Assembly (NCBI GenBank): GCA_030697705.1
Contig: JAUYPE010000006.1
Coordinates: forward strand, 4,686 to 68,685
DNA from: a bacterium
GTDB lineage: Bacteria; Patescibacteriota; Minisyncoccia; Sungbacterales; HO2-52-23
DNA: 64,000 bases
Direction of reading: 5' to 3'
Positions within the stretch are counted from its first letter, which is position 1. Each line of letters starts with the position of its first letter. This document shows, one piece after another, positions 2,587 to 57,292 of the stretch. A program made the translations under genes and the position numbers. The notes below the pieces were generated by a model, which saw only the letters and a program-made list of their open reading frames with translations, was not told the DNA's origin and did no database searches.

Positions 2587-5500
2587 ATGACCGATAAGGA
2601 GAAAAAAGCGACGATTCCGGAGCGGGAGGAGGCCATTTTGAAGTTCTGGGAGGAGCGGGAGATCTTCCGGAAGTCGGTGGAAAAGAACAAGAAAGGAAAA
2701 GAATTTGTTTTTTACGAAGGGCCGCCAACGGCAAACGGTCTGCCCGGCATCCATCATGTGGAGGCGCGGGCGTTTAAGGATATTATTCCGCGTTATAAAA
2801 CGATGCGGGGATTTTTCGTCCCGCGCCGTGCCGGATGGGATACGCACGGCCTGCCGGTTGAGCTACAGGTGGAAAAAGAGCTTGGCTTAAAAAATAAGCA
2901 GGATATTGAAAAATACGGTATTGGTGCGTTTAACGCCAAGGCGAAAGAATCCGTCTGGCGCTATAAAGAGGAGTGGGAAAAACTGACGAAGCGGATGGGA
3001 TTCTGGATTGATATGGACAATCCCTACATCACGTACAGCGCTCCCTATATGGAGAGTTCGTGGTGGATTATCCAGCAATTCTGGAAAAAGGGTTTACTGG
3101 AGGAGGACTTTAAGGTCGTTCCATGGTGCACGCGATGCGCTACCGGCTTGTCATCTCATGAATTGGCGCAGGGGTATAAAAAAACGACTGACACGGCCGT
3201 GTATGTGAAGTTTAAACTGGAACCCAATCAAAAGATCGGTGATTTTATGACGGATGACAAGACCTATATTCTGGCGTGGACGACAACGCCATGGACATTG
3301 CCGGGGAATGTGGGGTTAGCGGTGAATCCGAAGCTTGAGTATGTAAAGATAAAATGGGCGAGATCCTTCTATAAGACCCAAGAAGGACAGGAATTGCCGA
3401 TGCATCTAGACGAATATTATGTCATCGCAAAAGATATCTTTCTAAAAGTTGCAGAAAAACATCCAGGCGAAACAAATCGCTATGGCTGGCGGGGTCAGAC
3501 ATATGATATTATTGAAACTTTTACTGGGGAAAAGATTGTAGGGCAAAGATACAAGTCACTCTTCCATGTTAGCGAACTCAAAACAGAAACGGCATACAGG
3601 ATATATTCAGCTGATTTTGTTTCAGCGAGTGAGGGTACCGGTGTGGTGCATACTGCGGTGATGTACGGAGAGGATGACTATGTGTTGGGAAAAAAAGTGG
3701 GATTGCCAACATTTCATACTGTTGACGAGGCGGGAAGATTTGTTGGTTCACTTACAGACGGACTTGCGGGATTGTATGTAAAAGATTCCAGAACGGAAGA
3801 AAAAATTCTTGAAATTTTAAAAAGTAAAAACCTTCTCTTTGCGCAGGAAAAGTACGAGCACGACTATCCGTTCTGCTGGAGGTGCGGGACGCCATTGCTC
3901 TACTACGCGCGGAAGGGATGGTGGGTGAAGACGACGAAGGTGAAGAAAGAACTTATCGCGAATAACGAAACAATCAACTGGGTGCCGGAGCATATTAAGC
4001 ACGGGCGGTTTGGCGAATTTTTGCGTGAGGTGAGGGATTGGGCATTTTCGCGCGAGCGGTATTGGGGAACACCCTTGCCTATTTGGAAGTGCCAAAGTGA
4101 AAAATGCGATCATGTTGAGGTTATAGGTTCGCGCACTGAAATGGCCGAACACGGGAAAAAACTTTATAACGAATATTTCGTCATGCGCCATGGCGAGGCG
4201 ATGACGAATAGCAGAGGGATTATCTCATCGGAGGAGAATAAATACCCGCTCACCGCGAAAGGTCGCGCGCAAGTACAACGCGCGGCGGCACGGCTGAAAA
4301 AACAAGGCATTGATATTGTTATCGCCTCGCCGATTTTGCGTACGCGCGAGAGTGCGAAGATAATCGCAAAGATATTGGCTCTACCCGATGAGAATGTGCA
4401 TTTTGATGCGCGATTAAAGGAGATTGCGCTAGGGTCGTATGAAGGCAAAAAGGAGGGAGAGTATCATCGCGCGTTTAAAAATATACGGGAAAAACTTACC
4501 ACCGCGCTCCCAGGCGGCGAATCGCTTGACGAGGTGCGCCGGAGAATGATGGCGGCGCTTATTGATGCGGAGAAAAAGCATGGGGGTAAAAAAATCCTTT
4601 TCGTGAGCCACGACTATCCGTTGTGGATGCTCATGCGCGGAGCGGAGGGGTACTCGGGCGAGGAGGCGATTGCTCTTCGCGAAAATAACGGAAAAGAAAT
4701 GATGCATTGCGGCTATGCCGAGGTCTACGGGCTCACGCATGCCGACCTGCCGCGTGACGAAAAAGGCGAGGTGAATCTTCACCGACCGTATGTTGATGAT
4801 TTTGTTTTTCCGTGCGTAACATGCGGTGGCATGATGCGGCGTACGCCCGAAGTTGCCGATGGGTGGTTTGACTCGGGTGTTATGCCGTTTGCGCAGAGCC
4901 ACTATCCGTTTAGCTCTGTCCGTCATCCTGAACCCTTCGGACACCCTCAGGATAAACTCCGTGAAGGATCCCGTAAGTTAACGGAATTCCTCGCCCCGAC
5001 GATCGGGACTCGGAATGACGAGGGTGGAGGTTTGGCTTTCCCCGCCGACTATATTTGTGAGGGAGTTGACCAGACGCGCGGATGGTTCTATACGCTTCTT
5101 GCTGTCGCAACACTCCTTGGAAAAAAAGCACCATACAAAAATGTCATTTCGCTCGGGCATGTGCTGGATAAAAACGGACAGAAGATGTCCAAGTCAAAAG
5201 GCAACACGGTAAACGCGTTGGAGATTATTGAGAAGTACGGCATTGATGCCCTGCGCTGGTATTTCTACACGATCAATCCGCCCGGCGAGCCCAAAAAGTT
5301 TGACGAACGGGATGTGGCGAATAGATATCGTGGATTCATTCAGACGCTCTGGAACAGTTTTGTTTTGTTTGACACCTATGTCACTTCGGTTCCCGCAAGA
5401 ATTCCATCAACCATAAAACTTTCTATGCTTGATCGCTGGATTCTGGCGCGGATGGATGAGGTGACAGCGGAGGTGACGCGTGCGCTGGATAGATACGATA

Positions 5501-6282
5501 TTATGGCTGCGGGGCGGGCGCTGGAGGAGTTTTGTATCAACGACTTCTCGCAGTGGTTCTTGCGCCGCTCGCGCCGTCGGTTCCAGCATCCGGCGAGTAA
5601 AAATGAGTATGCTGGCGTTACCGTGGTTACAGGCGCCGTGCTGATGCGCTTAGCTTTTTTAACAGCACCGTTCACGCCGTTTTTGAGCGAGATGATTTTT
5701 CAGGAGTTAAAGAAAAAAATGAAACTTAAAGAGGAAAGCGTGCATCTGGCGGCGTGGCCCGCAGCGCCGAAGAAAATAAGTGCGGCGGACAAAAAACTGA
5801 TATTAGATATGCAGGTAGTTCGTGCGATCTGCTCTGAGGCTCTAAAATTGCGTGCTGAGGTGGGGATGAAGGTGCGCCAACCGTTGAGCAAATTACAAAT
5901 TACGAATGCTGAATTACAAAAAAAGACGGAGCTTCTGGCATTAATTCAAGATGAGGTAAACATAAAAAATATTTCATTTGGGAAAGAAATGTTTCTTGAT
6001 ACGGTACTGACGGTAGAACTTCGTGAAGAGGGGATGGTGCGCGAAGTCATCCGCAATATCCAAGAGATGCGGCGCGATCTGGGACTCACGCCGAGCCACA
6101 AAATCCGCGCGCAATTTTCCGCTACATCAAATGCGCTGGATGAAGTGCTTGGCCGATGGCAAAAAACAATCATGCGCGATGCGGGCGTAAAGGCGTTTAT
6201 TATTGCAGGCAAACGGGTGTTTGCTGCCGAGCGGGAATTAAAATTTGACGATGCGATGCTGTGGTTAGGGATTAAGAAGTAA
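2587..6282 (+). CDS. ileS: isoleucyl-tRNA synthetase (type 2 / eukaryote-like) carrying an inserted histidine-phosphatase domain
   Basis: HIGH-type motif PPTANGLPGIHHV; GWDTHGLPVE; KMSKSKGN; WFDSGVMPF; 1231 aa, unusually long because of an insertion of about 190 aa with RHGE...SHD phosphoglycerate-mutase-family motifs between the ...VIGS and LHRPYVDD segments. Confidence 0.9.
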   Translation: MTDKEKKATIPEREEAILKFWEEREIFRKSVEKNKKGKEFVFYEGPPTANGLPGIHHVEARAFKDIIPRYKTMRGFFVPRRAGWDTHGLPVELQVEKELGLKNKQDIEKYGIGAFNAKAKESVWRYKEEWEKLTKRMGFWIDMDNPYITYSAPYMESSWWIIQQFWKKGLLEEDFKVVPWCTRCATGLSSHELAQGYKKTTDTAVYVKFKLEPNQKIGDFMTDDKTYILAWTTTPWTLPGNVGLAVNPKLEYVKIKWARSFYKTQEGQELPMHLDEYYVIAKDIFLKVAEKHPGETNRYGWRGQTYDIIETFTGEKIVGQRYKSLFHVSELKTETAYRIYSADFVSASEGTGVVHTAVMYGEDDYVLGKKVGLPTFHTVDEAGRFVGSLTDGLAGLYVKDSRTEEKILEILKSKNLLFAQEKYEHDYPFCWRCGTPLLYYARKGWWVKTTKVKKELIANNETINWVPEHIKHGRFGEFLREVRDWAFSRERYWGTPLPIWKCQSEKCDHVEVIGSRTEMAEHGKKLYNEYFVMRHGEAMTNSRGIISSEENKYPLTAKGRAQVQRAAARLKKQGIDIVIASPILRTRESAKIIAKILALPDENVHFDARLKEIALGSYEGKKEGEYHRAFKNIREKLTTALPGGESLDEVRRRMMAALIDAEKKHGGKKILFVSHDYPLWMLMRGAEGYSGEEAIALRENNGKEMMHCGYAEVYGLTHADLPRDEKGEVNLHRPYVDDFVFPCVTCGGMMRRTPEVADGWFDSGVMPFAQSHYPFSSVRHPEPFGHPQDKLREGSRKLTEFLAPTIGTRNDEGGGLAFPADYICEGVDQTRGWFYTLLAVATLLGKKAPYKNVISLGHVLDKNGQKMSKSKGNTVNALEIIEKYGIDALRWYFYTINPPGEPKKFDERDVANRYRGFIQTLWNSFVLFDTYVTSVPARIPSTIKLSMLDRWILARMDEVTAEVTRALDRYDIMAAGRALEEFCINDFSQWFLRRSRRRFQHPASKNEYAGVTVVTGAVLMRLAFLTAPFTPFLSEMIFQELKKKMKLKEESVHLAAWPAAPKKISAADKKLILDMQVVRAICSEALKLRAEVGMKVRQPLSKLQITNAELQKKTELLALIQDEVNIKNISFGKEMFLDTVLTVELREEGMVREVIRNIQEMRRDLGLTPSHKIRAQFSATSNALDEVLGRWQKTIMRDAGVKAFIIAGKRVFAAERELKFDDAMLWLGIKK
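4150..4770 (+). other. in-frame histidine phosphatase (PGAM/CobC-like) domain inserted in ileS
   Basis: YFVMRHGEAMTNSRG...PLTAKG...ASPILRTRESA...LPGGESLDEV...ILFVSHDYPL: RHG catalytic motif, second His in SHD, GGES region; matches the histidine phosphatase superfamily layout. Confidence 0.7.
4918..5022. repeat. palindromic MITE-like repeat, copy A (in-frame inside ileS)
   Basis: gtccgtcatcctgaac...gaaggatcccgtaagttaacggaattcctcg...ctcggaatgacg; shares termini and core with copies at 10559, 18995, 48428, 51198, 54079, 57143; 105 nt = 35 codons, translated as SVRHPEPFGHPQDKLREGSRKLTEFLAPTIGTRNDEG between the conserved HYPF and FPADYI segments. Confidence 0.7.
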
Positions 6283-10558: not shown

Positions 10559-10646
10559 GTCCGTCATCCAGAGCGTAGCGAAGGATCCCGTACGATCTCA
10601 GTATACTGAATACTAGCGGGATTCCTCGTTATACTCGGAATGACGG
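10559..10646. repeat. palindromic MITE-like repeat, copy D (intergenic, full length)
   Basis: gtccgtcatccagagcgtagcgaaggatcccgtacgatctcagtatactgaatactagcgggattcctcgttatactcggaatgacgg; terminal inverted repeats ccgtcatcc / ggaatgacgg; central palindrome tcagtatactga. Confidence 0.75.
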
Positions 10647-10713
10647 GCGGGGGGTCAAATGGGTGAGTCCTAGACGGATTGCGGAGTAACTGATTTTTTG
10701 CTATGATCATCCC

Positions 10714-16948: not shown

Positions 16949-19600
16949 ATGTCAATCATGCGCTACAATCCCAAAAAAATTGAAGCAAAGTGGCAGAAAA
17001 AATGGCTCGCGGAAAAAATCTACGAGCCGGATTTGACTTCTCAACGAAAAAATTCTCGACAAGATCAAACCGTAAAATTGCGCAAACCGTTTTATAATCT
17101 CATGATGTTTCCGTATCCGTCCGCGGAAGGACTCCACATCGGCGGGATGCGGACGTTTACTGGTGTGGATATATACGGGCGCATTAAACGGATGCAGGGA
17201 CATGACGTTTTTGAGCCCATCGGGCTTGATGCATTCGGTATTCACTCGGAAAACTATGCGCTCAAAACGGGGCGGCACCCGATGAAGCAAGCGGTTATTT
17301 TGAAAAAAAACTTCTACCGCCAGCTTGCCGCAATGGGCAACGGTTTTGCGTGGGATGAACGATTAGAAACGAACGATCCGGACTACTACCGCTGGACGCA
17401 GTGGATCTTTGTGCAGATGTTTCGGCACGGTCTTGCGTACCGCAAAAAACAGGCGGTGAACTGGTGTCCTTCGTGCAAAACGGTGCTTGCCGACGAGCAG
17501 GTCATCACGGGGCGGTGTGAACGGTGCGATAGTGAAGTAATGAAAAAAGAACTGGAACAGTGGTTTTTCCGCACGACAAAGTATGCCGAGCGCCTCCTCA
17601 ATAATCTTGAAAAAATTGACTGGTCGGAACGCGTGAAGATTGCGCAGAGGAATTGGATTGGGAAGTCGGATGGCGCAATAATTCGCTTTCCCCTTACCGA
17701 GATTCCCAGTCAGCCCGACGGTAAACATTTTGTTGATGTTTTTACCACGCGGCCCGATACGCTCTTCGGCGCGACCTTTCTTGTGATCTCTCCGGAGCTG
17801 GCGAAATTCTGGATGGATATCGGGTGGCGGGTGGGCGATGATGTGCGCGACTATGTAAAAACCACGCTTGCCGAGCGGGCGATACAAGCACGAGACGCAG
17901 AACCGAAAAAAACGGGCGTGTTCTCCGGCATCTATGGTATTAACCCCGCAAACCAAGAAAAAATTCCCGTCTGGATTGCGGACTATGTGCTCGCCGGATA
18001 CGGTACCGGTGCCATTATGGCGGTACCTGCACACGACGAACGCGATTTTGAGTTTGCAAAAAAGTATAATCTGCCGATAAAAATCGTTGTCTGTCCGCAC
18101 TATCCGGAGAAGACATGTCCGATTTTGGACGAGGCATACACAGGCGAGGGACACTTGGTTGGTTCAAGTGTATTTGATGGTATGACTTCAATTGCCGCGC
18201 GGGCGACTATTGTCAAACATGTCGGCGGGAAGATAACTATTCAATATCGGCTCCGCGATTGGCTGATCTCTCGTCAGCGCTATTGGGGACCGCCGATTCC
18301 GATGATCTATTGCGAGGCATGCGCACGCAATAAAAAAGGTGAGCGAAACGACACGCCCGGGTGGTATACGGTGCCGGAAAAAAATCTTCCGGTGAAACTG
18401 CCATTTATCAAAAACTTTAGACCTACTGGAACGGATCGGTCGCCACTCGCAAGCGTCGCTTCTTTTTATAAAGTTCGATGTCCGGGGTGTAAAAAAGAGG
18501 CGCGGCGCGAAACGGACGTCTCGGATACCTTTTTGGATTCCGCATGGTATTTTTTGCGCTATCCGAATGTAAAGAATAAAAAAGCCGCATGGGATGCGGC
18601 GATAACCAAAAAAATACTTCCCGTTGATTCATACATCGGCGGGGCGGAGCACTCGGTTTTACATCTCATGTACGCGCGCTTTTTGACGATGGCGTTACAT
18701 GATATTGGTGTTTTGAATTTTTCCGCCAAAGGCGGATCCGCCTCCGGCGGAGAAGAACCGTTTCCAAAATTTCGGGCGCACGGATTGATTACCAAAGACG
18801 GTGCGAAGATGTCCAAGTCAAAGGGCAATGTCGTGAGTCCCGACGAGTACATCAAAGCATACGGCGCCGATGCGGTGCGGATGTACTTGGCGTTTTTGGC
18901 TCCCTTTGAGCAGGACGGAGATTTCCGCGATACGGGCATCCGTGGTATGACGCGGTTTCTTGAGCGCGTTTGGCGGATGATGCAAAACTTCTCCAGCCGT
19001 CATCCTGAAGGAGCGAAGCGACTGAAGGATCCCGCAAAGTTACGGGATGCTTCGCCTACGGCTCAGCATGACATACAGCAGGTGCTCCATCGGACGATAA
19101 AGAAAGTTACGGAAGATATAGAGCACCTGCACTACAACACCGCCATTTCCGCGCTTATGGTTTTGCTCAATAGTTTTGAAAAACATCCGGAGGAGGTCGC
19201 GCAAGAATACGGAGGGGTATTTTTAAAGCTTCTGGCGCCATTTGCCCCGCATGTAGCGGAAGAGTTGTGGCAGCAGATGAATGCTCATACTAATGCTAAA
19301 TTAAAAATGCCAAATGATAAAAAAAAGCATTCAGCATTCAGCATTCAGTATTCAGCATTTCGTTCTGTTCATCGCGAGCCGTGGCCGAAATATAATCCAC
19401 GTTTGATCATGGAACAAACGTTTGAACTTGTCGTGCAGGTCAACGGCAAGGTCCGCGGCCGCGTATCTGTTTCTAGAGGAATAAGCGAGGCGGATGTGGT
19501 CGCCACAGCTCGCGCATTGGAGTCGGTAAAACCTTATTTAGCTGCACTGCCAAAAAAAACAATCTTTGTTCCCGATAAACTTGTAAACTTTGTCGTCTAG
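16949..19600 (+). CDS. leuS: leucyl-tRNA synthetase
   Basis: MMFPYPSAEGLHIGGMRTFTGVDIYGR...GLDAFGIHSE...KMSKSKGN; 883 aa; contains MITE copy B and a heptamer SSR in-frame. Confidence 0.92.
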   Translation: MSIMRYNPKKIEAKWQKKWLAEKIYEPDLTSQRKNSRQDQTVKLRKPFYNLMMFPYPSAEGLHIGGMRTFTGVDIYGRIKRMQGHDVFEPIGLDAFGIHSENYALKTGRHPMKQAVILKKNFYRQLAAMGNGFAWDERLETNDPDYYRWTQWIFVQMFRHGLAYRKKQAVNWCPSCKTVLADEQVITGRCERCDSEVMKKELEQWFFRTTKYAERLLNNLEKIDWSERVKIAQRNWIGKSDGAIIRFPLTEIPSQPDGKHFVDVFTTRPDTLFGATFLVISPELAKFWMDIGWRVGDDVRDYVKTTLAERAIQARDAEPKKTGVFSGIYGINPANQEKIPVWIADYVLAGYGTGAIMAVPAHDERDFEFAKKYNLPIKIVVCPHYPEKTCPILDEAYTGEGHLVGSSVFDGMTSIAARATIVKHVGGKITIQYRLRDWLISRQRYWGPPIPMIYCEACARNKKGERNDTPGWYTVPEKNLPVKLPFIKNFRPTGTDRSPLASVASFYKVRCPGCKKEARRETDVSDTFLDSAWYFLRYPNVKNKKAAWDAAITKKILPVDSYIGGAEHSVLHLMYARFLTMALHDIGVLNFSAKGGSASGGEEPFPKFRAHGLITKDGAKMSKSKGNVVSPDEYIKAYGADAVRMYLAFLAPFEQDGDFRDTGIRGMTRFLERVWRMMQNFSSRHPEGAKRLKDPAKLRDASPTAQHDIQQVLHRTIKKVTEDIEHLHYNTAISALMVLLNSFEKHPEEVAQEYGGVFLKLLAPFAPHVAEELWQQMNAHTNAKLKMPNDKKKHSAFSIQYSAFRSVHREPWPKYNPRLIMEQTFELVVQVNGKVRGRVSVSRGISEADVVATARALESVKPYLAALPKKTIFVPDKLVNFVV
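18995..19073. repeat. palindromic MITE-like repeat, copy B (in-frame inside leuS, short form)
   Basis: agccgtcatcctgaaggagcgaagcgactgaaggatcccgcaaagttacgggatgcttcgcctacggctcagcatgac; translated SSRHPEGAKRLKDPAKLRDASPTAQH in the variable linker before the conserved HRTIKKVTEDIE segment; boundaries approximate. Confidence 0.55.
19327..19360. repeat. tandem heptanucleotide repeat (gcattca x about 4.7) inside leuS
   Basis: gcattcagcattcagcattcagtattcagcattt preceded by an A8 run; encodes HSAFSIQYSAF within an expanded loop near the LeuRS C-terminus. Confidence 0.7.
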
Positions 19601-27975: not shown

Positions 27976-28653
27976 ATGCTTCTTTCCCGCAATGCGATTT
28001 TACGTCATTACCAACAAGGGAATATCGTCATTGATCCGTTTGACGAGCGGAAATTAAAAACAGTGAGTTATGATGTGTCGCTCGGCGATTGGTTTTGGCG
28101 CGAGGGGCATCCAGAGGGGCGTGCGACTGTGCACAATCTTTACGACGAAGAATCCACGAAGCGTGTGTGGCAAGGGCCGTTTCAGGCCGAGGCGCGGGAT
28201 GCGGTGTGCGAGCGGCTGGGAATGGATTTGAAAAATATTAAAACGGCGGACAAGATTATTCTCTTGCGTCCCGGCGAAACGGTGCTGGCGCATACAGAAG
28301 AATTTATCGGTGGTCGTGATCGTGCCGTCGCCAAAATGTACGCGCGCTCAAGCATGGGGCGCAATTTTATTGAGGTGTGCAAGGACGCCGGCTGGGGCGA
28401 TATCGGGTACTTCAACCGCTGGACGATGGAGGTGACGAACAATTCACAGTACTTTACTATTCCGTTGGTAGTGGGAAGGCGCGTCGGGCAGATGGTTTTT
28501 TATGAAGTAGAGCCGATCAGTGCCGTTCCCGATTATGTGAAAGAAGGCGGCAAATACCAGTACTCACAGGATATTGAAGAAGTTAAAAAATCATGGAATC
28601 CCCATATGATGATTCCGCAGATGCATAAGGATTGGGAAGTTGGCTCGGAATAG
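27976..28653 (+). CDS. dcd: dCTP deaminase / dUTPase-fold enzyme
   Basis: MLLSRNAILRHYQQGNIVIDPFDE...VSYDVSLGD...ILLRPGETVLAHTEEFIGG typical of dCTP deaminase; internal ATG chosen because the upstream part of the ORF overlaps tsaC in another frame. Confidence 0.7.
   Translation: MLLSRNAILRHYQQGNIVIDPFDERKLKTVSYDVSLGDWFWREGHPEGRATVHNLYDEESTKRVWQGPFQAEARDAVCERLGMDLKNIKTADKIILLRPGETVLAHTEEFIGGRDRAVAKMYARSSMGRNFIEVCKDAGWGDIGYFNRWTMEVTNNSQYFTIPLVVGRRVGQMVFYEVEPISAVPDYVKEGGKYQYSQDIEEVKKSWNPHMMIPQMHKDWEVGSE
28585..28642. repeat. direct repeat (copy 1 = native 3' end of dcd)
   Basis: aaaaaatcatggaatccccatatgatgattccgcagatgcataaggattgggaagtt; near-identical copy at 29396..29452. Confidence 0.75.
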
Positions 28654-28727
28654 CAATTATATCGTAATGGGCGCTCTGCTATGGAGGAAGATTGGAAATT
28701 TTTAGATAAATAGGTTATAATACACCC

Positions 28728-28931
28728 ATGAAAAAATCTACGCTCCCTATCATTGATGTCAAAAAATATGGCGGTAAACAGGTGGCGATTGTGAGAGGAA
28801 AAATCGTTGCGTCTGGCGACTCAACGCGAGAGGTGCTTGTGCGCGCACGGCGGAAGGTTTCCCCTAAAGACAAGAATGCTATCTGGTTACTTACTGTCCC
28901 GCGAGGGCTTACAATGGTTTATCGTTTATGA
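28728..28931 (+). CDS. small hypothetical protein (partner of retropepsin-like protease)
   Basis: 67 aa, MKKSTLPIIDVKKYGGKQVAIVRGKIVASGDS...; 4-nt overlap with downstream protease gene. Confidence 0.4.
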   Translation: MKKSTLPIIDVKKYGGKQVAIVRGKIVASGDSTREVLVRARRKVSPKDKNAIWLLTVPRGLTMVYRL

Positions 28932-29377
28932 CGCTCGTAATACCATACGGAATACGGTTGGCGGGGGATGAAGGGCGGGTTGAAACGGTGCCGGTAGCGT
29001 ATATTCGAGTGCGATATGGTGCTTTCGAAATCCCCGGAATTTTTGTCGTTGATTCAGGAGCAACTACGACTCTTTTGCCCGCTTCCGATGCTGACGAGCT
29101 GGGAATTTCTTTGAAGAAGGGTGGGGAACGAGTCGCGATACAGGGCGCTACTGGTCATGTACTTATGGGATGTCGTCATAGGGTTGATATGGTCATTGAT
29201 AATTTTTTTCTCCATGCCGTACCGGTTATTTTTGCGCGAGCAAAAAACATCCCTCGCGTACTCGGTCGCGAGGGCGTGTTTTCGCGATTTGGGATTCTTT
29301 TTGACGAAGCACGACGGCGTACTGCACTACTTGATGCTCATAAAGAACGAAAAGCCATTGACGGTTTGTTATCATAA
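28928..29377 (+). CDS. retropepsin-like (clan AA) aspartic protease
   Basis: IFVVDSGATTTLL: the D-S/T-G-A catalytic motif with hydrophobic-hydrophobic-D context of retroviral-type aspartyl proteases; 149 aa. Confidence 0.65.
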   Translation: MTLVIPYGIRLAGDEGRVETVPVAYIRVRYGAFEIPGIFVVDSGATTTLLPASDADELGISLKKGGERVAIQGATGHVLMGCRHRVDMVIDNFFLHAVPVIFARAKNIPRVLGREGVFSRFGILFDEARRRTALLDAHKERKAIDGLLS

Positions 29378-29395
29378 GACGCGTATCAACCTACC

Positions 29396-29452
29396 CAAAA
29401 ATCGTGGAATCCCCACATGATGATTCCGCAGATGCATAAGGATTGGGAGGTT
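29396..29452. repeat. direct repeat (copy 2, duplicate of dcd 3' end)
   Basis: cccaaaaatcgtggaatccccacatgatgattccgcagatgcataaggattgggaggtt, about 54/57 identical to 28585..28642. Confidence 0.75.
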
Positions 29453-29628
29453 AACTTGTCGTAGCGCTTTCGCTTTTTATTTTGCCCAGCGACAAAATAT
29501 GCTAAGCATCAACACGGTTTCTCTCGGCGACCATCGGGACCGTGCAAACTGTGTCTCAAATTGTCTCAAAATAAAAGCAAAAGCGCCTGCGAACTCGCAA
29601 GATAATGATCGGGGGGGGGATACATTTT

Positions 29629-38553: not shown

Positions 38554-39303
38554 TCATTTAGTGGGCGAGGGGAGAGTCGAACTTTCACTTGCTCTCGTGT
38601 ACTCTCTTCGCTTTTCAGTTGAGAAAATTGCTAAAGTATTTTGTGCGATCATCCACTTTCTTTGCAGGCAAGGTAATCCTTCTTGATAATACATCCAGCT
38701 CAGTAAGTTTATAGAATCTTTCTTCGCGAATTTGAGTTGCCACATACTTGTTGTTTGGTCTTTTCGCGTTGGCTTTTCTTCGTTTAGGTGTCCCTTTATG
38801 GCAAAAATTCTTTCCATATTTTTCTGTATCCATTCCATGTGCTCTTGACTCGCAGATAGAAATCTAACAAATAGGCGGGTATAGGTATATTTCGGATTCT
38901 TATATGTATTATAGTAATCAGTGTATGTAGAGATTGATCCGTCGCCATCCAAGTGTCCCCGAAGAAAGTCGGCGAAATAATCGTCAGGAATTTTTATCTT
39001 CCCAATGGTGTAGGTTTTCGCAGGAAACAGGCCAATCGTGAGTAACCAATTATAGAACTGAATATTACCGAACTGGACTCTATAACTGGGCTTCGTTGCG
39101 TACCCATTATTATGAGACACCGCCATTTTATTTTGAATGCCAAGGCATCGCCTAAATGTCTTTAGTTGTTCTGTTTCAGATGAACGCATTATGATATGCC
39201 TACCATCTTTTGAAAGACATCCATCAGTAACAAGAAGCCCCACCGCATAAGCAAGCTCTGATGTCCATAAAAACTCTTTTTCCGGCAATTTCATTTTTGC
39301 CAT
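38554..39303 (-). CDS. LAGLIDADG-family homing endonuclease (two-motif monomeric type)
   Basis: Motif 1 LAYAVGLLVTDGCLS and motif 2 FLRGHLDGDGSIS; start placed at MAKMKL (ATG complement 39301..39303) because the upstream part of the ORF is the tRNA-Leu gene read as protein. Confidence 0.8.
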   Translation of the reverse strand: MAKMKLPEKEFLWTSELAYAVGLLVTDGCLSKDGRHIIMRSSETEQLKTFRRCLGIQNKMAVSHNNGYATKPSYRVQFGNIQFYNWLLTIGLFPAKTYTIGKIKIPDDYFADFLRGHLDGDGSISTYTDYYNTYKNPKYTYTRLFVRFLSASQEHMEWIQKNMERIFAIKGHLNEEKPTRKDQTTSMWQLKFAKKDSINLLSWMYYQEGLPCLQRKWMIAQNTLAIFSTEKRREYTRASESSTLPSPTK

Positions 39304-39309
39304 AAAGTA

Positions 39310-39393
39310 TGGGCGAGGCGGGATTTGAACCCGCACGGGATTACTCCCACACGATTTTGAGTCGTGATCGTCTGCCAATTCCGACACTCGCCC
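39310..39393 (-). tRNA. tRNA-Leu (anticodon CAA), class II with long variable arm
   Basis: Manual fold: acceptor GGGCGAG/CTCGCCC + A73; D-arm TCG-GAATTGGCAGA-CGA; anticodon stem CACGA/TCGTG with loop CTCAAAA (CAA); variable arm GGGAGTAATCCC; T-arm GCGGG-TTCAAAT-CCCGC; no encoded CCA. Confidence 0.85.
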
Positions 39394-41116: not shown

Positions 41117-41185
41117 GTCATTGCGAGGAGCCGAAGGCGACGCGGCAATTACAAAAAGATTGCTTCGGCTTCACCTCGCAATGAC
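41117..41185. repeat. 69-bp perfect-ended palindrome between parA and parB
   Basis: gtcattgcgagg agccgaag gcgacgcggcaattacaaaaagattg cttcggct tcacctcgcaatgac; termini resemble the MITE family termini gtcattccgag / ctcggaatgac. Confidence 0.6.
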
Positions 41186-47941: not shown

Positions 47942-50080
47942 TCACAAAAGTGCCGATTCGTTTCTCGCCTCCTCAACCGCCTCGCCGAGCATTTGGTAAT
48001 AAAGATTCAAGCCGATTTTATTGATGGCGCCCGATTGCTTGCGACCAAGAATATTGCCCGCGCCGCGGATTTCCAAATCGCGCAGGGCGAGCTGATATCC
48101 TGCGCCAAGTTCGGCGTATTCTTGCAGTGCCTCCAGCCGTTCTGTCGCTTTTTGGGTAAGATGTTTGGGACGATACAAAAAATACGCATACGCCTGATCC
48201 GTCCCACGGCCAATCCTACCGCGGAGCTGGTGCGCCTGCGCGAGTCCGAGCCGCGTCGCGTCGTCTACGATGAGCGTATTGGCAGATGAGATATCCAAAC
48301 CGTTTTCAATAATAGTGGTGGCAAGAAGAATATCTATTTTTCCCTCGCGAAACTCATTCATCGTGCGGATGATCGCGTCTTCCCCCATCCGGCCGTGCAT
48401 GATCGCGATGCGGGGTTTAACCCTTATTCCGTCATCCAGAGTCCCGACTCGTCGGGACGAAGGATCCCGTAAATTAACGGGATTCCTCTCCGCCCCAGGC
48501 GGCTCGGAATGACGGACAAAACGGGTAAATCCCAGCTTAGCTTTTTTTGCAAGCATGCGCTCAAGTTTCTGCTTCACCGCGCCGATCGTTTCTATCCTAT
48601 TATGGAGAAAATAAACCTGCCCGCCGCGTTCGCGTTCGCGAAGAATCGCCTCGGCAATGAGCTTGGCGGAATAAGGGAGGACGAGCGTCTGGATGGCGAG
48701 GCGGCCGGGCGGCGGGGTATCCAGTGTGGAAATGTCGCGAAGCCGCGCAAGGGTAAGTTGCATAGTGCGGGGGATGGGCGTTGCCGAGAGTGAGAGTATA
48801 TCAACATCGGCGCAAATTTCTTTTAAGCGTTCTTTTTGTTTAACACCGAAGCGCTGTTCTTCGTCCAGAATTACCATACCGAGATTCTTGAACGCCACAT
48901 CGCGTGAGAGGAGCCGGTGTGTGCCGATGATGCAATCAATTTTTCCATTCTGCACCTCGTCAAGCATGCGTGTTTGTTCTGCGGGAGAGGCGAGCCGGGA
49001 AATCATGCGGACGGAGACAGGGAGAGCGGCGAATCGCTCGCGGAACGTCCGTTCGTGCTGTGCGGCGAGGACGGTGGTGGGAGCCAAAACGGCGACCTGT
49101 GCGCCGGAGGCGATAATGCGCATCGCCGCGCGGATGGCAACCTCCGTTTTACCGAATCCCACATCGCCGCAGAGGACGCGATCCATGGGTGCATCACGTG
49201 CCATGTCGGCGAGGATTTCGTTTTCCGCTCGCGACTGGTCTTCTGTTTCTTGATAAGGGAAACTTTCGCGGAGTCGTGCTTCCATGTCGTTGTCCCCCGT
49301 GCGGGGAGGGCGCCGTGCGAGGGAACGCTTGGCATAGAGTGCAAGAAGTGCCCGCGCAAGTTTTTCTGTTTCTTCCTTTACTTTTCGTTTGGTATTCATC
49401 CACAGCGAACCGCCCAAACGATGTACGCGGGGTAACTCAAACCCCACATAGGGCGAGAGCCGCTCGTACTGCACGCGCGGTACAAATAGACGATCCGGCT
49501 CCGCTCCCTCGCGCGGCGGCGCGTATTCTATGATGAAAAAGTCATCCGTCGGTATGTCCGTTCCCAAAATGTTTTTTTGCCGCGCGTCTGTCCCCATGCC
49601 GTGAAAGATACCAATGCCGTGGTCAATATGGACGACGAAACTTCCCGGAGCGAGGTTCTCCATCGTTGTTTTTTGCGAGATGCGCGGTTTTGCGTGCGGC
49701 AGTTCTTCCGTCGGCGGGCGCTGGACAAGCGATGCGATCGTATTTCCCGAAAACTCAATCAAATAAGGTACAGCCGTATTAATCGGCCAGATCTCTATGA
49801 CCCCGCCGCGTACGGCGAAAAGCCCGCGACTCCGCACCGTTTGCACGCGCTCATAGCTAAAACCGGATAGCCGCCGTGCAAGTTCCGCCGGCTTCATGAC
49901 CAAGTCCTGCTCAACAAAAAATGCATGCTCCCGCCACCACGGATTCGCCATCCGCGCCTTCTTAATTGATTCCTGATTTTCCGCGTACCACAAAACATCC
50001 CTCTCCAAATTTTGGGGGGTTACCGAGACGATGAGGAGTTCTTGTGGTGGTGCCGCGCCCTGCGGCGCTTTGCCAGCCAT
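47942..50080 (-). CDS. mfd: transcription-repair coupling factor Mfd, short form lacking the UvrB-homology N-terminal domains
   Basis: Walker A CGDVGFGKTEVAIRAA, motif II DEEQRFGV, C-terminal TRCF domain; 712 aa versus about 1150 canonical; contains MITE copy C in-frame. Confidence 0.8.
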   Translation of the reverse strand: MAGKAPQGAAPPQELLIVSVTPQNLERDVLWYAENQESIKKARMANPWWREHAFFVEQDLVMKPAELARRLSGFSYERVQTVRSRGLFAVRGGVIEIWPINTAVPYLIEFSGNTIASLVQRPPTEELPHAKPRISQKTTMENLAPGSFVVHIDHGIGIFHGMGTDARQKNILGTDIPTDDFFIIEYAPPREGAEPDRLFVPRVQYERLSPYVGFELPRVHRLGGSLWMNTKRKVKEETEKLARALLALYAKRSLARRPPRTGDNDMEARLRESFPYQETEDQSRAENEILADMARDAPMDRVLCGDVGFGKTEVAIRAAMRIIASGAQVAVLAPTTVLAAQHERTFRERFAALPVSVRMISRLASPAEQTRMLDEVQNGKIDCIIGTHRLLSRDVAFKNLGMVILDEEQRFGVKQKERLKEICADVDILSLSATPIPRTMQLTLARLRDISTLDTPPPGRLAIQTLVLPYSAKLIAEAILRERERGGQVYFLHNRIETIGAVKQKLERMLAKKAKLGFTRFVRHSEPPGAERNPVNLRDPSSRRVGTLDDGIRVKPRIAIMHGRMGEDAIIRTMNEFREGKIDILLATTIIENGLDISSANTLIVDDATRLGLAQAHQLRGRIGRGTDQAYAYFLYRPKHLTQKATERLEALQEYAELGAGYQLALRDLEIRGAGNILGRKQSGAINKIGLNLYYQMLGEAVEEARNESALL
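48428..48517. repeat. palindromic MITE-like repeat, copy C (in-frame inside mfd, read on minus strand)
   Basis: ttccgtcatccagagtcccgactcgtcgggacgaaggatcccgtaaattaacgggattcctctccgccccaggcggctcggaatgacgga; 90 nt = 30 codons; encodes VRHSEPPGAERNPVNLRDPSSRRVGTLDDG immediately before the conserved RIAIMHGRM segment. Confidence 0.65.
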
Positions 50081-51197: not shown

Positions 51198-51282
51198 TCC
51201 GTCATTCTGAACGCAGTGAAGAATCCCGTATGATTTCAGTATGTTGAACATTAACGGGATTCCTCGCTTCGCTCGGAATGAC
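51198..51282. repeat. palindromic MITE-like repeat, copy E (intergenic pth/lepB)
   Basis: tccgtcattctgaacgcagtgaagaatcccgtatgatttcagtatgttgaacattaacgggattcctcgcttcgctcggaatga. Confidence 0.75.
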
Positions 51283-51363
51283 AAGAGGGCGAAAAATATA
51301 GTATTTGTAGGATTTTGAGGGTTATTATTTGCCAATAGAGCTTAGGTCAACTATACTCTACGC

Positions 51364-53780: not shown

Positions 53781-53825
53781 TATCAGCTATTTATCATTCA
53801 GCATTTGTAATTTATCATTCTTGTT

Positions 53826-54059: not shown

Positions 54060-54078
54060 AGTAGGAGGTGTAATCAGA

Positions 54079-54188
54079 GTCATTCCGAGCGTGAGCGACT
54101 GCCAGGAGGCGTCCCGTGAGGGGGGAATTCCGTTAATATTCAGCATACTGAAATTGTACGGGATCCTTCGCTACGCTCTGGATGACGG
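54079..54188. repeat. palindromic MITE-like repeat, copy F (intergenic, opposite orientation)
   Basis: gtcattccgagcgtgagcgactgccaggaggcgtcccgtgaggggggaattccgttaatattcagcatactgaaattgtacgggatccttcgctacgctctggatgacgg. Confidence 0.75.
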
Positions 54189-54201
54189 AGTTGTTTTTGC
54201 T

Positions 54202-54663
54202 ATGACTCTCCAAGAGCGGATTATCGCAGACATGAAGGATGCCATGCGGGCTCATGACGAGCTCCGTGTTTCTGTTTTGCGGATGCTTATCGCCGCGGTA
54301 AAAAACAAAGAAATTGCCGAGCGGGGACGAGGGAAGAGCGGTGAGTTGTCCGATGATGAGGTTTTGGCGGTATTCAAGACGGAGGTAAAAAAGCGGCGCG
54401 ACGGTGCGGAGGGATTCCGCGTGGGCGGGCGCTCTGAATCTGCGGAAAAAGAAGACGCCGAACGGTTGATGATCGAGCTCTATCTTCCTGCCGAACTCTC
54501 GGATGAGGAGATAAAAAAACTCGTCCAACCGCTTGCGGAAGGACGAGGTGCTGATGAGTTCGGTCGCGTTATGGGTGCGGCGATGAAAGCCGTTGCAGGT
54601 CGTGCGAACGGCGACCGTATCGGTGCAATCGTGAAGAAGATGCTTGGCGGGGTAAAGACCTAG
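54202..54663 (+). CDS. GatB/YqeY-domain protein
   Basis: LQERIIADMKDAMRAHDELRVSVLRMLIAAVKNKEI matches the YqeY N-terminus; ATG at 54202 chosen because the upstream part of the ORF is MITE copy F. Confidence 0.7.
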   Translation: MTLQERIIADMKDAMRAHDELRVSVLRMLIAAVKNKEIAERGRGKSGELSDDEVLAVFKTEVKKRRDGAEGFRVGGRSESAEKEDAERLMIELYLPAELSDEEIKKLVQPLAEGRGADEFGRVMGAAMKAVAGRANGDRIGAIVKKMLGGVKT

Positions 54664-55208
54664 CGGAGACAGCAGAACTGGAAGTCTAATTGATATCGGA
54701 AGCCACTGGTAAGATCTTCGGGATCTTCTGCGAATAGAATACGCTCGGCTCCGCAGATACGAAAAGGATCTCTTCTGTTCCAGTAGCATCTATACTCAAA
54801 ACCATCTTCGATCAGACAATTGGAAATTGGTCCCCGAAACAGAGATGTAGTGTCGACTCTCTTGAGCATGCTCTCCAAAAACGCGAATGTCTTTTTTACT
54901 TGCCTCGGATCTCCAAGAGCATACCCATCATACGCCATGTGTGCAATTGGAACAAAAGGACCGAACTCATCGGTGCGCTCAAAATACATCTCGCGGCCGA
55001 AAAATGGATTATCAAGCGGGCCAGTTCCGTCCCACTGGTCTGTAAAACGCCACTGCGGCCAGCGCTCGTCATTGAATGTATACATCCAGCCGCCATGAGA
55101 AAGTTGTATGGCTCTCGTCTCTCCTCCTGAAGCGTAGGTCTTCTGTTTTGCCGTAACCATGAACTCAAGAAAGTTATGGTCGTCAAGGAGTGTTTTTGGC
55201 TGTGCCAT
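54660..55208 (-). CDS. hypothetical protein
   Basis: 182 aa, W/F-rich soluble protein; no motif recognised. Confidence 0.45.
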   Translation of the reverse strand: MAQPKTLLDDHNFLEFMVTAKQKTYASGGETRAIQLSHGGWMYTFNDERWPQWRFTDQWDGTGPLDNPFFGREMYFERTDEFGPFVPIAHMAYDGYALGDPRQVKKTFAFLESMLKRVDTTSLFRGPISNCLIEDGFEYRCYWNRRDPFRICGAERILFAEDPEDLTSGFRYQLDFQFCCLR

Positions 55209-57120: not shown

Positions 57121-57142
57121 TTTTAGGACTTACGCATTTTAT

Positions 57143-57233
57143 CCGTCATTCAAGGTGTAGCGAAGGATTTTTCGTACGATTTCAGTATACTGAAAATAGT
57201 AACGGGATTCCTCGCGGGTGCTCGGAATGACGG
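57143..57233. repeat. palindromic MITE-like repeat, copy G (intergenic upstream of ftsA)
   Basis: ccgtcattcaaggtgtagcgaaggatttttcgtacgatttcagtatactgaaaatagtaacgggattcctcgcgggtgctcggaatgacgg. Confidence 0.75.
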
Positions 57234-57292
57234 ATAGGGGAGAGAGAAGGTCTCCTTTTGTTATCATTCTTTATTCTTACTTCTTCATTTCT

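Follow-up and report, generated by a model that had tools for sequence, protein, structure and literature searches.

Palindromic repeats of small size are known from within bacterial reading frames, and we describe here one such repeat (copy C) that lies in-frame in leuS, the gene for leucyl-tRNA synthetase (LeuRS), on a 64-kb stretch of contig JAUYPE010000006.1 (positions 4,686 to 68,685, forward strand; this whole stretch is the window, and unless another contig is named all coordinates are those of the window). The genome is that of a member of the Parcubacteria/Sungbacteria, judged by the relatives of its LeuRS. The closest described system is that of the CGTC-tagged repetitive extragenic palindromes (REPs; Di Nocera, De Gregorio & Rocco, 2013, BMC Genomics 14:522, PMC3733652). 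As set out there, a unit has a CGTC tag (variants TGTC/CCTC), a stem of 8-9 bp with A-T residues at positions 1-2, a loop of 4-5 nt that is deviant in some families, and the 3-nt tail CCA; the units occur mostly as inverted dimers, whose spacer can be structured, lie mostly in intergenic space near gene ends, and are described there as having no dedicated transposase. Dimers within genes encode 20-30 aa, have tRNA synthetase and DNA-repair genes among their hosts, and are seen there as neutral inserts in flexible loops; the Rickettsia elements RPE-4 and RPE-6 are likewise assigned there to the CGTC REPs.

Two other systems resemble the present case. Rickettsia palindromic elements (RPEs) lie in-frame in unrelated housekeeping genes, where they are read in an open frame and are thought to occupy loops at the protein surface that the fold can accommodate (Ogata et al., 2000, Science 290:347; Ogata et al., 2002, Genome Res 12:808; both as cited in PMC10969869 and PMC3733652), and bacterial MITEs (miniature transposable elements with inverted repeats, such as ERIC/IRU, Correia and Nezha) occasionally form in-frame fusions with host open reading frames (ORFs; reviewed in PMC10969869). 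A literature search for the window repeat, its peptides, and MITEs or palindromes in the candidate phyla radiation (CPR) or Patescibacteria returned nothing beyond primer coincidences or unrelated papers and, in the literature searched, no description of such elements in CPR/Patescibacteria, which is weak evidence of absence.

A REP-like dimer in the leuS reading frame

The host ORF is a full bacterial LeuRS: it matches NCBIfam TIGR00396 over a single stretch (aa 6-883) with 850 bits against a cut-off of 548, and Pfam places the end of tRNA-synt_1 at aa 656 and the start of Anticodon_1 at aa 709. Copy C occupies the linker between these two domains and consists of two units facing each other across a short spacer.

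16949-19600, plus strand: leuS, bacterial leucyl-tRNA synthetase of 883 aa, with TIGR00396 and Pfam matches; host ORF of copy C
18997-19073, plus strand: copy C, inverted dimer of two REP-like units, in-frame in leuS and encoding RHPEGAKRLKDPAKLRDASPTAQHD (aa 684-708)
18998-19033, plus strand: left unit of copy C, with tag CGTC (18998-19001), arm ATCCTGAA (19002-19009), loop GGAGCGAAGCGAC (19010-19022), arm TGAAGGAT (19023-19030) and tail CCC (19031-19033)
19034-19043, no strand assigned: 10-nt spacer GCAAAGTTAC between left and right unit
19044-19073, minus strand: right unit of copy C, with tag TGTC, arm ATGCTGAG, loop CCGTAGG, arm CGAAGCAT and tail CCC

A preliminary description, made from the letters of the window, had placed an in-frame, stop-free repeat in the LeuRS linker that leads from the KMSKS region to the anticodon-binding domain, and the reading frame and the domain boundaries bear this out. 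Its sequence and peptide are also as described there, the one correction being the start (18995, which lies 2 nt upstream of the first conserved base). The element is 76-77 nt long (18997-19072 reads ccgtcatcctgaaggagcgaagcgactgaaggatcccgcaaagttacgggatgcttcgcctacggctcagcatgac), shows the conserved blocks ccgtcatcctgaag...gaaggatcccgcaaagttacggg...gctcagcatgac in this order, and is predicted to be translated as ...SSRHPEGAKRLKDPAKLRDASPTAQHDI... across aa 682-709, its peptide being preceded by SS and followed by IQQ; predicted tryptic peptides from this region include LKDPAK, LRDASPTAQHDIQQVLHR and HPEGAK.

Copy C belongs to a repeat family with seven copies (A-G) of 76-112 nt each in the window. 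The other six are listed below, with E values from leave-one-out nhmmer searches in which a profile of six copies was run against both strands of the whole window.

4919-5022, plus strand: copy A, in-frame in ileS (ORF 2587-6282), peptide VRHPEPFGHPQDKLREGSRKLTEFLAPTIGTRNDE (E=3.8e-10)
10560-10647, plus strand: copy B, intergenic; loops of the canonical 5 nt, spacer long and AT-rich (E=2e-19)
48428-48516, minus strand: copy D, in-frame in an mfd-like gene (ORF 47942-50080, minus strand), peptide VRHSEPPGAERNPVNLRDPSSRRVGTLDDG (E=1.2e-12)
51198-51285, plus strand: copy E, in the intergenic gap that separates pth from a signal-peptidase gene (E=1e-18)
54078-54189, minus strand: copy F, overlapping the 3' end of ORF 54133-54789 (minus strand; E=1.2e-16)
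57142-57234, plus strand: copy G, between a HEPN-domain gene and ftsA (E=5e-15)

Each of the seven was recovered by the profile of the others. Copy C, the shortest and most diverged of them (70% identity to its nearest relative, copy D), was found at full length (18997-19073) with 21-23 bits (E=2.6e-6 to 9e-6), the weakest score of the set (21.2 bits, E=9e-6). An external profile, built from 18 copies found only in genomes of Verrucomicrobiota, Nitrospirota and Komeilibacteria, matched copy C at E=1.4e-5, which ranks it fourth of the seven window copies, and also matched its right unit on the reverse strand (E=0.0014). The preliminary description had proposed to test membership by masking two boxes, ccgtcatcc and ggatcccg, the strongest of the element; with both masked a whole-window nhmmer search no longer reports copy C. 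The 59 nt outside the boxes are nevertheless significantly alike in global alignment, both to the window copies (z=5.7; 1/3000 shuffles) and to the external copies (z=6.3; 0/3000), and a right-half motif free of either box (ACGGGATTCCTC with at most 2 mismatches, a gap of 0-45 nt, then CTCGGAATGAC with at most 2 mismatches) finds exactly the seven copies, copy C included, against a random expectation of 0.01 per window. Membership of copy C in the family, as proposed in the preliminary description, is confirmed by these results. Covariance models of Rfam at their gathering scores found no match to the repeat anywhere in the window (a single tRNA was the only hit), and Pfam holds no family for the peptides that the copies encode.

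Two further window copies lie inside recognisable proteins. The ileS assignment is secure (TIGR00392, 835 bits), and copy A forms a 39-aa insert where the solved isoleucyl-tRNA synthetase (IleRS) 8C9D has 6 residues, so leuS is, as had been noted, a second aminoacyl-tRNA synthetase (aaRS) gene with the element. The host of copy D is an Mfd-like helicase (720 bits, under the equivalog cut-off of 800), to which the copy adds an insert of 44 aa at a place where solved Mfd has a single residue.

All seven window copies are inverted dimers with their tags facing outward, and all 14 half-units parse alike, into a [C/T/A]GTC tag, an 8-nt arm starting with AT, a loop, an 8-nt arm ending in AT, and a CCC tail. 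The tag is CGTC in 11 of 14 window units, TGTC in two and AGTC in one; among the 132 canonical units at all loci it is CGTC in 91 and TGTC in 41, in a search whose pattern demanded CGTC on one side. The tail is exactly CCC in 11 of 14 window units and in 117 of the 132 overall, of which 7 have CCA. The stem comprises 8 positions that open with A-T and T-A in every window unit and in all 31 distinct unit types; Watson-Crick pairing covers the first five of them and a closing pair (5+1), and positions 6-7 in between are taken up by a tandem G.A/A.G mismatch that is invariant. Three of the eight positions show compensatory changes among the 31 unit types of all loci (position 3, UA/CG/GC; position 5, CG/UA; position 8, GC/AU), and cells with double changes number 29 vs. 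11.5 in shuffles (0/500), every slid control being lower, with the caveat that one arm type was fixed by the search patterns used. The inverted ends of the repeat are complementary at 9-10 of 12 positions.

Loops of 5 nt (6 of the 14 window units) and 6 nt (one unit) all belong to intergenic copies, while units of intragenic copies have loops of 7-29 nt, and the right unit of copy F one of 31 nt, expanded by nested hairpins. The loops of copy C measure 13 nt (left unit) and 7 nt (right unit). Its left arm matches a 'long-arm' variant known from copies in other phyla, as seen in the external-profile alignment, and its right unit has a compensatory G-C pair of its own at stem position 3, where the family has C-G or U-A. 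As RNA, copy C folds at -31 kcal/mol (z=-3.4; 0/200 shuffles). The folds of the intragenic copies are four-way junctions, and a tRNA-like or cloverleaf reading of them was dropped, as Rfam finds no tRNA there.

The preliminary description had called the segment MITE-derived, and this label is not established. No target-site duplications were seen on reading the flanks of all seven copies (left flanks are T-rich and right flanks G-rich), no transposase family was matched among the 58 ORFs of the window or in the sister contigs examined, and the anatomy is that of an inverted dimer made up of two REP-like stem-loops with CGTC/TGTC tags, a description that suits copy C better than MITE does.

Copy C is open in one of its six frames, the one that leuS uses, and copies A and D are open in two of six each. 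All three intragenic window copies read RH[PS]E...[N/H/D]D, and the RHPE...QHD of copy C resembles the ileS copy. That the two share a stop-free frame and an RHPE start, which the preliminary description had stressed, is correct by frame analysis, but nothing special attaches to the sharing, because each terminus leaves two frames open and closes only the third, by TGA, and because a VIL/VIP frame is used elsewhere; copies inside genes on other contigs also read in this VIL/VIP...MT frame. The peptides differ among copies because the inner frame shifts. Spacers differ as well: the intragenic window copies have 10 nt, and three of the four intergenic copies have 25-30 nt of AT-rich sequence with stops in every forward frame (copy G has one forward frame open). 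The spacer of copy C is stop-free in the leuS frame, where the usual family spacer GTAAATTAAC or GTAAGTTAAC would give TAA, and copy D has a stop at the spacer position in its forward frame 1.

Proposed history of the insert and competing explanations

The closest full-length relative of the window LeuRS (P0001, 76% protein identity) is encoded on contigs L020/L021. These share synteny with the window, at a nucleotide identity of 84-90%, and we call them the sister genome. The sister leuS lacks copy C. The flanks of copy C align to it at 83-90%, both reaching about 90% close to the site, and the stretch between them is unalignable and measures 117 nt in the window vs. 72 nt in the sister, so that the comparison shows absence of the repeat but a net difference of +45 nt rather than a clean 78-nt gain. 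Of 95 Parcubacteria LeuRS sequences, not one has the RHPE peptide. When the C-terminal third of LeuRS was used as the query, no fragment with the same insert and none closer than 57% identity came up; the protein collection searched holds the LeuRS of the window genome only as a 515-aa N-terminal fragment (P0013). Linkers of the 95 relatives run from 13 to 40 aa (mode 19, median 24), and that of the window measures 37 aa. Presence and absence of the family vary between window and sister in both directions, as L020 carries copies elsewhere, for example a composite of 250 nt between sucC and sucD, where the window has no copy. No empty site or target-site duplication could be inferred at the sucC-sucD site or at the site of copy B, where junctions have diverged or gene content differs.

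Structure prediction is consistent with a tolerated insert. In an AlphaFold2 model of LeuRS (95-sequence alignment; mean predicted local distance difference test score (pLDDT) 84.4, predicted template modelling score 0.80), the copy C segment falls after helix 661-683 and before helix 703-725, and its blocks score pLDDT 66 and 59.

We consider it most likely that a REP-dimer insertion, translated and tolerated, entered the leuS linker after the split from an L020-like lineage. A copy of the dimer would have entered the interdomain linker by the process that spreads CGTC REPs, after divergence from the nearest sequenced sister, and would have replaced about 9-10 native codons, for the net +45 nt. 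In an essential gene only a frame-keeping, stop-free copy would survive, and this one would be read as a hydrophilic, solvent-exposed and poorly ordered excursion of 25-26 residues between two helices, at the junction of catalytic body and anticodon-binding domain. Copy C would then be selfish DNA filtered by purifying selection, at a site that tolerates extra residues.

Several observations weigh against this reading or limit it. Copy C is the weakest member of the family (21 bits), and its whole-window significance is lost once both boxes are masked. There is no clean empty site, the sister differing by +45 nt and not by +76-78. Removing 26 aa leaves a linker of 11 aa, under the minimum of 13 found among the 95 relatives, which argues for an insertion in which about 9-10 native codons were lost or replaced, and not for a clean gain. 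The Proteobacterial LeuRS 6Q89 has a linker that is naturally of about equal length, so the site tolerates extra residues, but length alone is no evidence of insertion. Protein identity to the nearest relative is no more than 76%, which leaves the timing of the insertion loose, and with neither a target-site duplication nor a transposase found, mobility rests on the presence/absence differences between genomes. Translation of copy C, finally, we infer from its open frame. An intein or intron reading was also considered and dropped, as the segment is too short, contains no such domains, and has an open frame and a net length of 3n, which favour translation.

The insert might instead have been put to use, its peptide (net charge about +2) providing a new contact to tRNA or to a partner, or its -31 kcal/mol mRNA structure regulating leuS translation or stability, so that positive selection would keep it in place. 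Such exaptation would fit the still well-folded palindrome (z=-3.4), the compensatory pair in the right unit and the recurrence of aaRS genes among hosts of the family. It would also fit the finding that the LeuRS linker of two other Parcubacteria holds strongly folding REP-type dimers, which makes three lineages with such dimers at this place.

L022, 2124-2195: dimer in the LeuRS linker, same family as copy C, read in the VIL frame
L023, 12059-12132: dimer in the LeuRS linker, canonical CGTC type (stems of 8 bp, loops GAAA and of 5 nt, tails CCA)

The distance from the element tag to the conserved Leu-His codons is 11 nt in both the window and L022, and 15 nt in L023. However, stem compensation is expected of any repeat that acts at the DNA or RNA level, the peptides of the copies differ as the inner frame shifts, AlphaFold confidence is low at copy C, the closest relatives do without the segment, hosts elsewhere are unrelated (Obg, cysteine desulfurase IscS, pyruvate:ferredoxin oxidoreductase), and intragenic REPs have been published as neutral and located in flexible loops (PMC3733652). 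We therefore regard exaptation as quite unlikely, and prefer a neutral insertion.

A second alternative places the insertion before the split, so that it would be ancestral to the clade and the shorter linker of the sister would be a decayed or deleted remnant. The sister linker does contain GAAGCAAAGAATCCGTGG, loosely like the family core GCGAAGGATCCCGT, a net difference of 45 rather than 78 nt is what a partial deletion might leave, and copy C is the most diverged copy of the window. Family profiles, however, give no match to the L020 linker at E<1, the 8-mer likeness is within chance by our own estimate, the peptide is present in 0 of 95 relatives, and copy C folds as a near-intact dimer, all of which makes an old insertion improbable to a high degree and leaves insertion after the split as the preferred history. 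It is barely conceivable that copy C is an assembly chimera or a native linker whose likeness to the repeat is accidental, given that, although repeats can misassemble metagenome bins and whole-window significance goes with the two strongest boxes, the 76-77 nt are in-frame with well-aligned leuS on both sides (83-90%), read pairs would span them, a chimera rarely keeps frame without stops, two independent profiles agree at E of about 1e-5, the masked remainder is significant, and the unit parse and compensatory pair are family-specific.

Relative to the sister, the window LeuRS has four extra in-frame segments, copy C among them. The other three coincide with further low-pLDDT stretches, which include aa 32-42, 594-599 and 793-801 (+36, +30 and +54 nt).

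17029-17083 (leuS aa ~28-45): N-terminal extra segment TSQRKNSRQDQTVKL, +36 nt vs. the sister, pLDDT <50
18722-18751 (leuS aa 592-601): 30-nt palindromic in-frame segment tccgccaaaggcggatccgcctccggcgga, encoding SAKGGSASGG, pLDDT <50
19274-19356 (leuS aa ~776-803): in-frame segment, AT-rich, containing about 5 tandem copies of a 7-nt repeat (gcattca) and encoding NAKLKMPNDKKKHSAFSIQYSAF, +54 nt vs. the sister

At the position of the N-terminal segment, other Parcubacteria LeuRS have unrelated repeat-like peptides (e.g. PRQARDK, SLARDK). The SAKGGSASGG segment is missing from the closest relatives (P0001-P0006) and from the sister L020, and is present at the same spot in P0007, P0008 and P0012 (63-66% identity), a distribution that could reflect independent insertion at one site, or transfer. 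The gcattca segment looks like a second type of in-frame repeat: a different LeuRS, P0127, has a peptide much like NAKLKMPNDKKKHSAFSIQYSAF, namely MPNAKYTDRKRENNSAFSIQHSAL, in its other linker, and heptamer repeats related to those of leuS lie at 5891-5920 and 53790-53819 of the window.

Distribution of the family and its host genes

A greedy ORF estimate puts coding sequence at about 91% of the window, yet only three of its seven copies are fully intragenic (binomial P of about 0.002, calculated by hand), a depletion as purifying selection on insertions would produce. Copy F is a case apart. The 218-aa ORF 54133-54789, which has no family match, owes its final 19 codons (SVIQSVAKDPVQFQYAEY) and its TAA stop to the left unit of this copy (54133-54189), so that copy F is a C-terminal fusion and not an internal insert.

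A metagenome scan with the left-arm pattern returned at least 120 loci, and a scan for a short-spacer 'type 2' core gave no match. Hosts of the family include Patescibacteria (Sungbacteria), Verrucomicrobiota/Udaeobacter and Nitrospirota. Copies inside genes on these other contigs were counted only where the ORF has family or PDB support, and the many long 'spanning ORFs' around copies in contigs of 58-70% GC were treated as spurious. Those retained are as follows.

L027, aa 70-95 and 513-534: two in-frame copies in arginyl-tRNA synthetase (ArgRS), both reading RHSEQSEESR...
L123, aa 440-475: in-frame copy in the beta subunit of phenylalanyl-tRNA synthetase (PheT)
L040, between the two domains: in-frame copy in pyruvate:ferredoxin oxidoreductase (POR)
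L032: in-frame copy in Obg, an insert of about 39 aa relative to 1LNZ
L074: in-frame copy in IscS, an insert of about 36 aa
L024, aa 76-117: in-frame copy in an RNase D-like protein
L106, aa 261-299: in-frame copy in another class I aaRS

The two copies in the ArgRS of L027 (11616-13493) have nearly identical peptide starts, RHSEQSEESR[K/E]LTGS. This contig is 87% identical in nucleotides to the window at the start of ileS, a divergence at the level of the sister genome, and differs from the window in gene order, with argS directly upstream of ileS.

Besides the dimers of L022 and L023 in the LeuRS linker, further repeat-like peptides lie in the same linker of other relatives (P0004, ...GTARND; P0038, VRNDISNEAKRPREIASS...; P0111, VIPAKAGIH...), and the linker may be a hot spot for insertions or else strongly permissive to them. 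Among aaRS and repair proteins, IleRS, LeuRS, ArgRS (twice), PheT, another class I aaRS and Mfd carry copies. One could go further and propose that a single cross-phylum family of CGTC-tagged REP dimers (Patescibacteria, Verrucomicrobiota, Nitrospirota) is a systematic source of lineage-specific insertions in housekeeping proteins of CPR bacteria with small genomes and lands in them non-randomly, the basis for the latter being that the LeuRS linker was struck independently in at least three Parcubacteria lineages, twice at the identical 11-nt offset, and that aaRS and repair genes seem over-represented among the hosts. We hold this broader proposal only tentatively and think it doubtful; if true, non-random landing would point to a target preference (for particular sequences or structures, or through a link to transcription or replication) and not to survivorship alone.

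Other features of the window and its relatives were noted along the way. The 1231-aa IleRS that carries copy A also contains, between the two synthetase halves, an embedded domain of the dPGM_arch type; NUDIX or alpha/beta-hydrolase Pfam domains are similarly present in many of the Parcubacteria LeuRS homologues that reach about 1000 aa. The GTCAT...ATGAC ends are shared by a second palindromic family, GTCATTGCGAGGAGC...GCTTC...CCTCGCAATGAC, which is present in the window and also in L020, where a copy is nested in a first-family copy of the sucC-sucD gap.

4168-4692 (IleRS aa 528-702): embedded histidine-phosphatase/phosphoglycerate-mutase-like domain that has the motif RHG (match to dPGM_arch with 104 bits, E=6e-30)
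28586-28654 and 29397-29465: two 69-nt direct repeats, 87% identical and 811 nt apart
28928-29377: 149-aa ORF between these repeats, matching retropepsin-like aspartyl protease families (gag-asp_proteas, 39 bits)
38554-39393, minus strand: 277-aa ORF with a weak LAGLIDADG_3 match (23.5 bits, cut-off 22.5)
39310-39393, minus strand: the sole tRNA gene of the window (84 nt matched to a 71-position model), overlapped by the LAGLIDADG_3 ORF
41117-41185: second palindromic family, between a parA-like gene and parB
L020, 14485-14559: second palindromic family, nested copy

Relation to known repeat systems

No new mechanism is at issue, as intragenic REP dimers in tRNA-synthetase and repair genes were already described in 2013 (PMC3733652). 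What the window adds is reach: protein-coding palindromes, best known from Rickettsia, would extend to Patescibacteria and to soil Verrucomicrobiota through a single cross-phylum family. Part of the extra length and of the low-confidence loops in CPR housekeeping proteins would then be translated selfish palindromes and not functional domains, so that annotators and structure predictors should expect such segments and phylogenomic alignments should mask them. With hundreds of copies, many of them in genes, the family also offers a tractable data set for asking how CGTC-type REPs copy.

The window repeat has some features of MITEs. It is small (76-112 nt), has many copies and inverted ends, and varies in presence between related genomes, as MITEs do; however, its 'terminal inverted repeats' are entire REP-like hairpin units, and no insertion sequence with matching ends was found. 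The GTAG REPs and REPINs, which RAYT transposases (IS200/IS605-like, Y1) mobilise, likewise consist of short imperfect hairpins with an unpaired tetranucleotide tag and often form inverted doublets able to fold into one long hairpin, but the tag here is CGTC and not GTAG, and none of the 58 window ORFs has a RAYT/Y1 transposase domain.

The leuS, ileS and mfd copies resemble RPEs in being in-frame palindromic inserts at permissive sites of housekeeping genes. RPE-1, however, is longer (about 100-150 bp), and the RPE host is an obligate intracellular alphaproteobacterium, whereas the host here is a free-living or episymbiotic member of the CPR; the window family moreover crosses phyla, and its copies in genes use two alternative frames. 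We view the window repeat as a functional analogue of RPEs, and possibly as a superfamily relative through RPE-4 and RPE-6, and do not file it as an RPE.

The CGTC REP superfamily is the closest match. Judged by anatomy, against the verbal description of this superfamily (published families CGTC-1 to CGTC-4), the window repeat agrees with it in the tag, the A-T/T-A start of the stem, the arrangement as inverted dimers and, within the window, the lack of a transposase, and, like its members, is mostly intergenic with some copies inside aaRS and repair genes. Agreement is only partial in stem pairing, where the tandem G.A/A.G mismatch leaves 5+1 pairs, in loop length, which is 5 nt in canonical units but expanded in the intragenic copies, and in the tail, which has 3 nt but reads CCC and not CCA.

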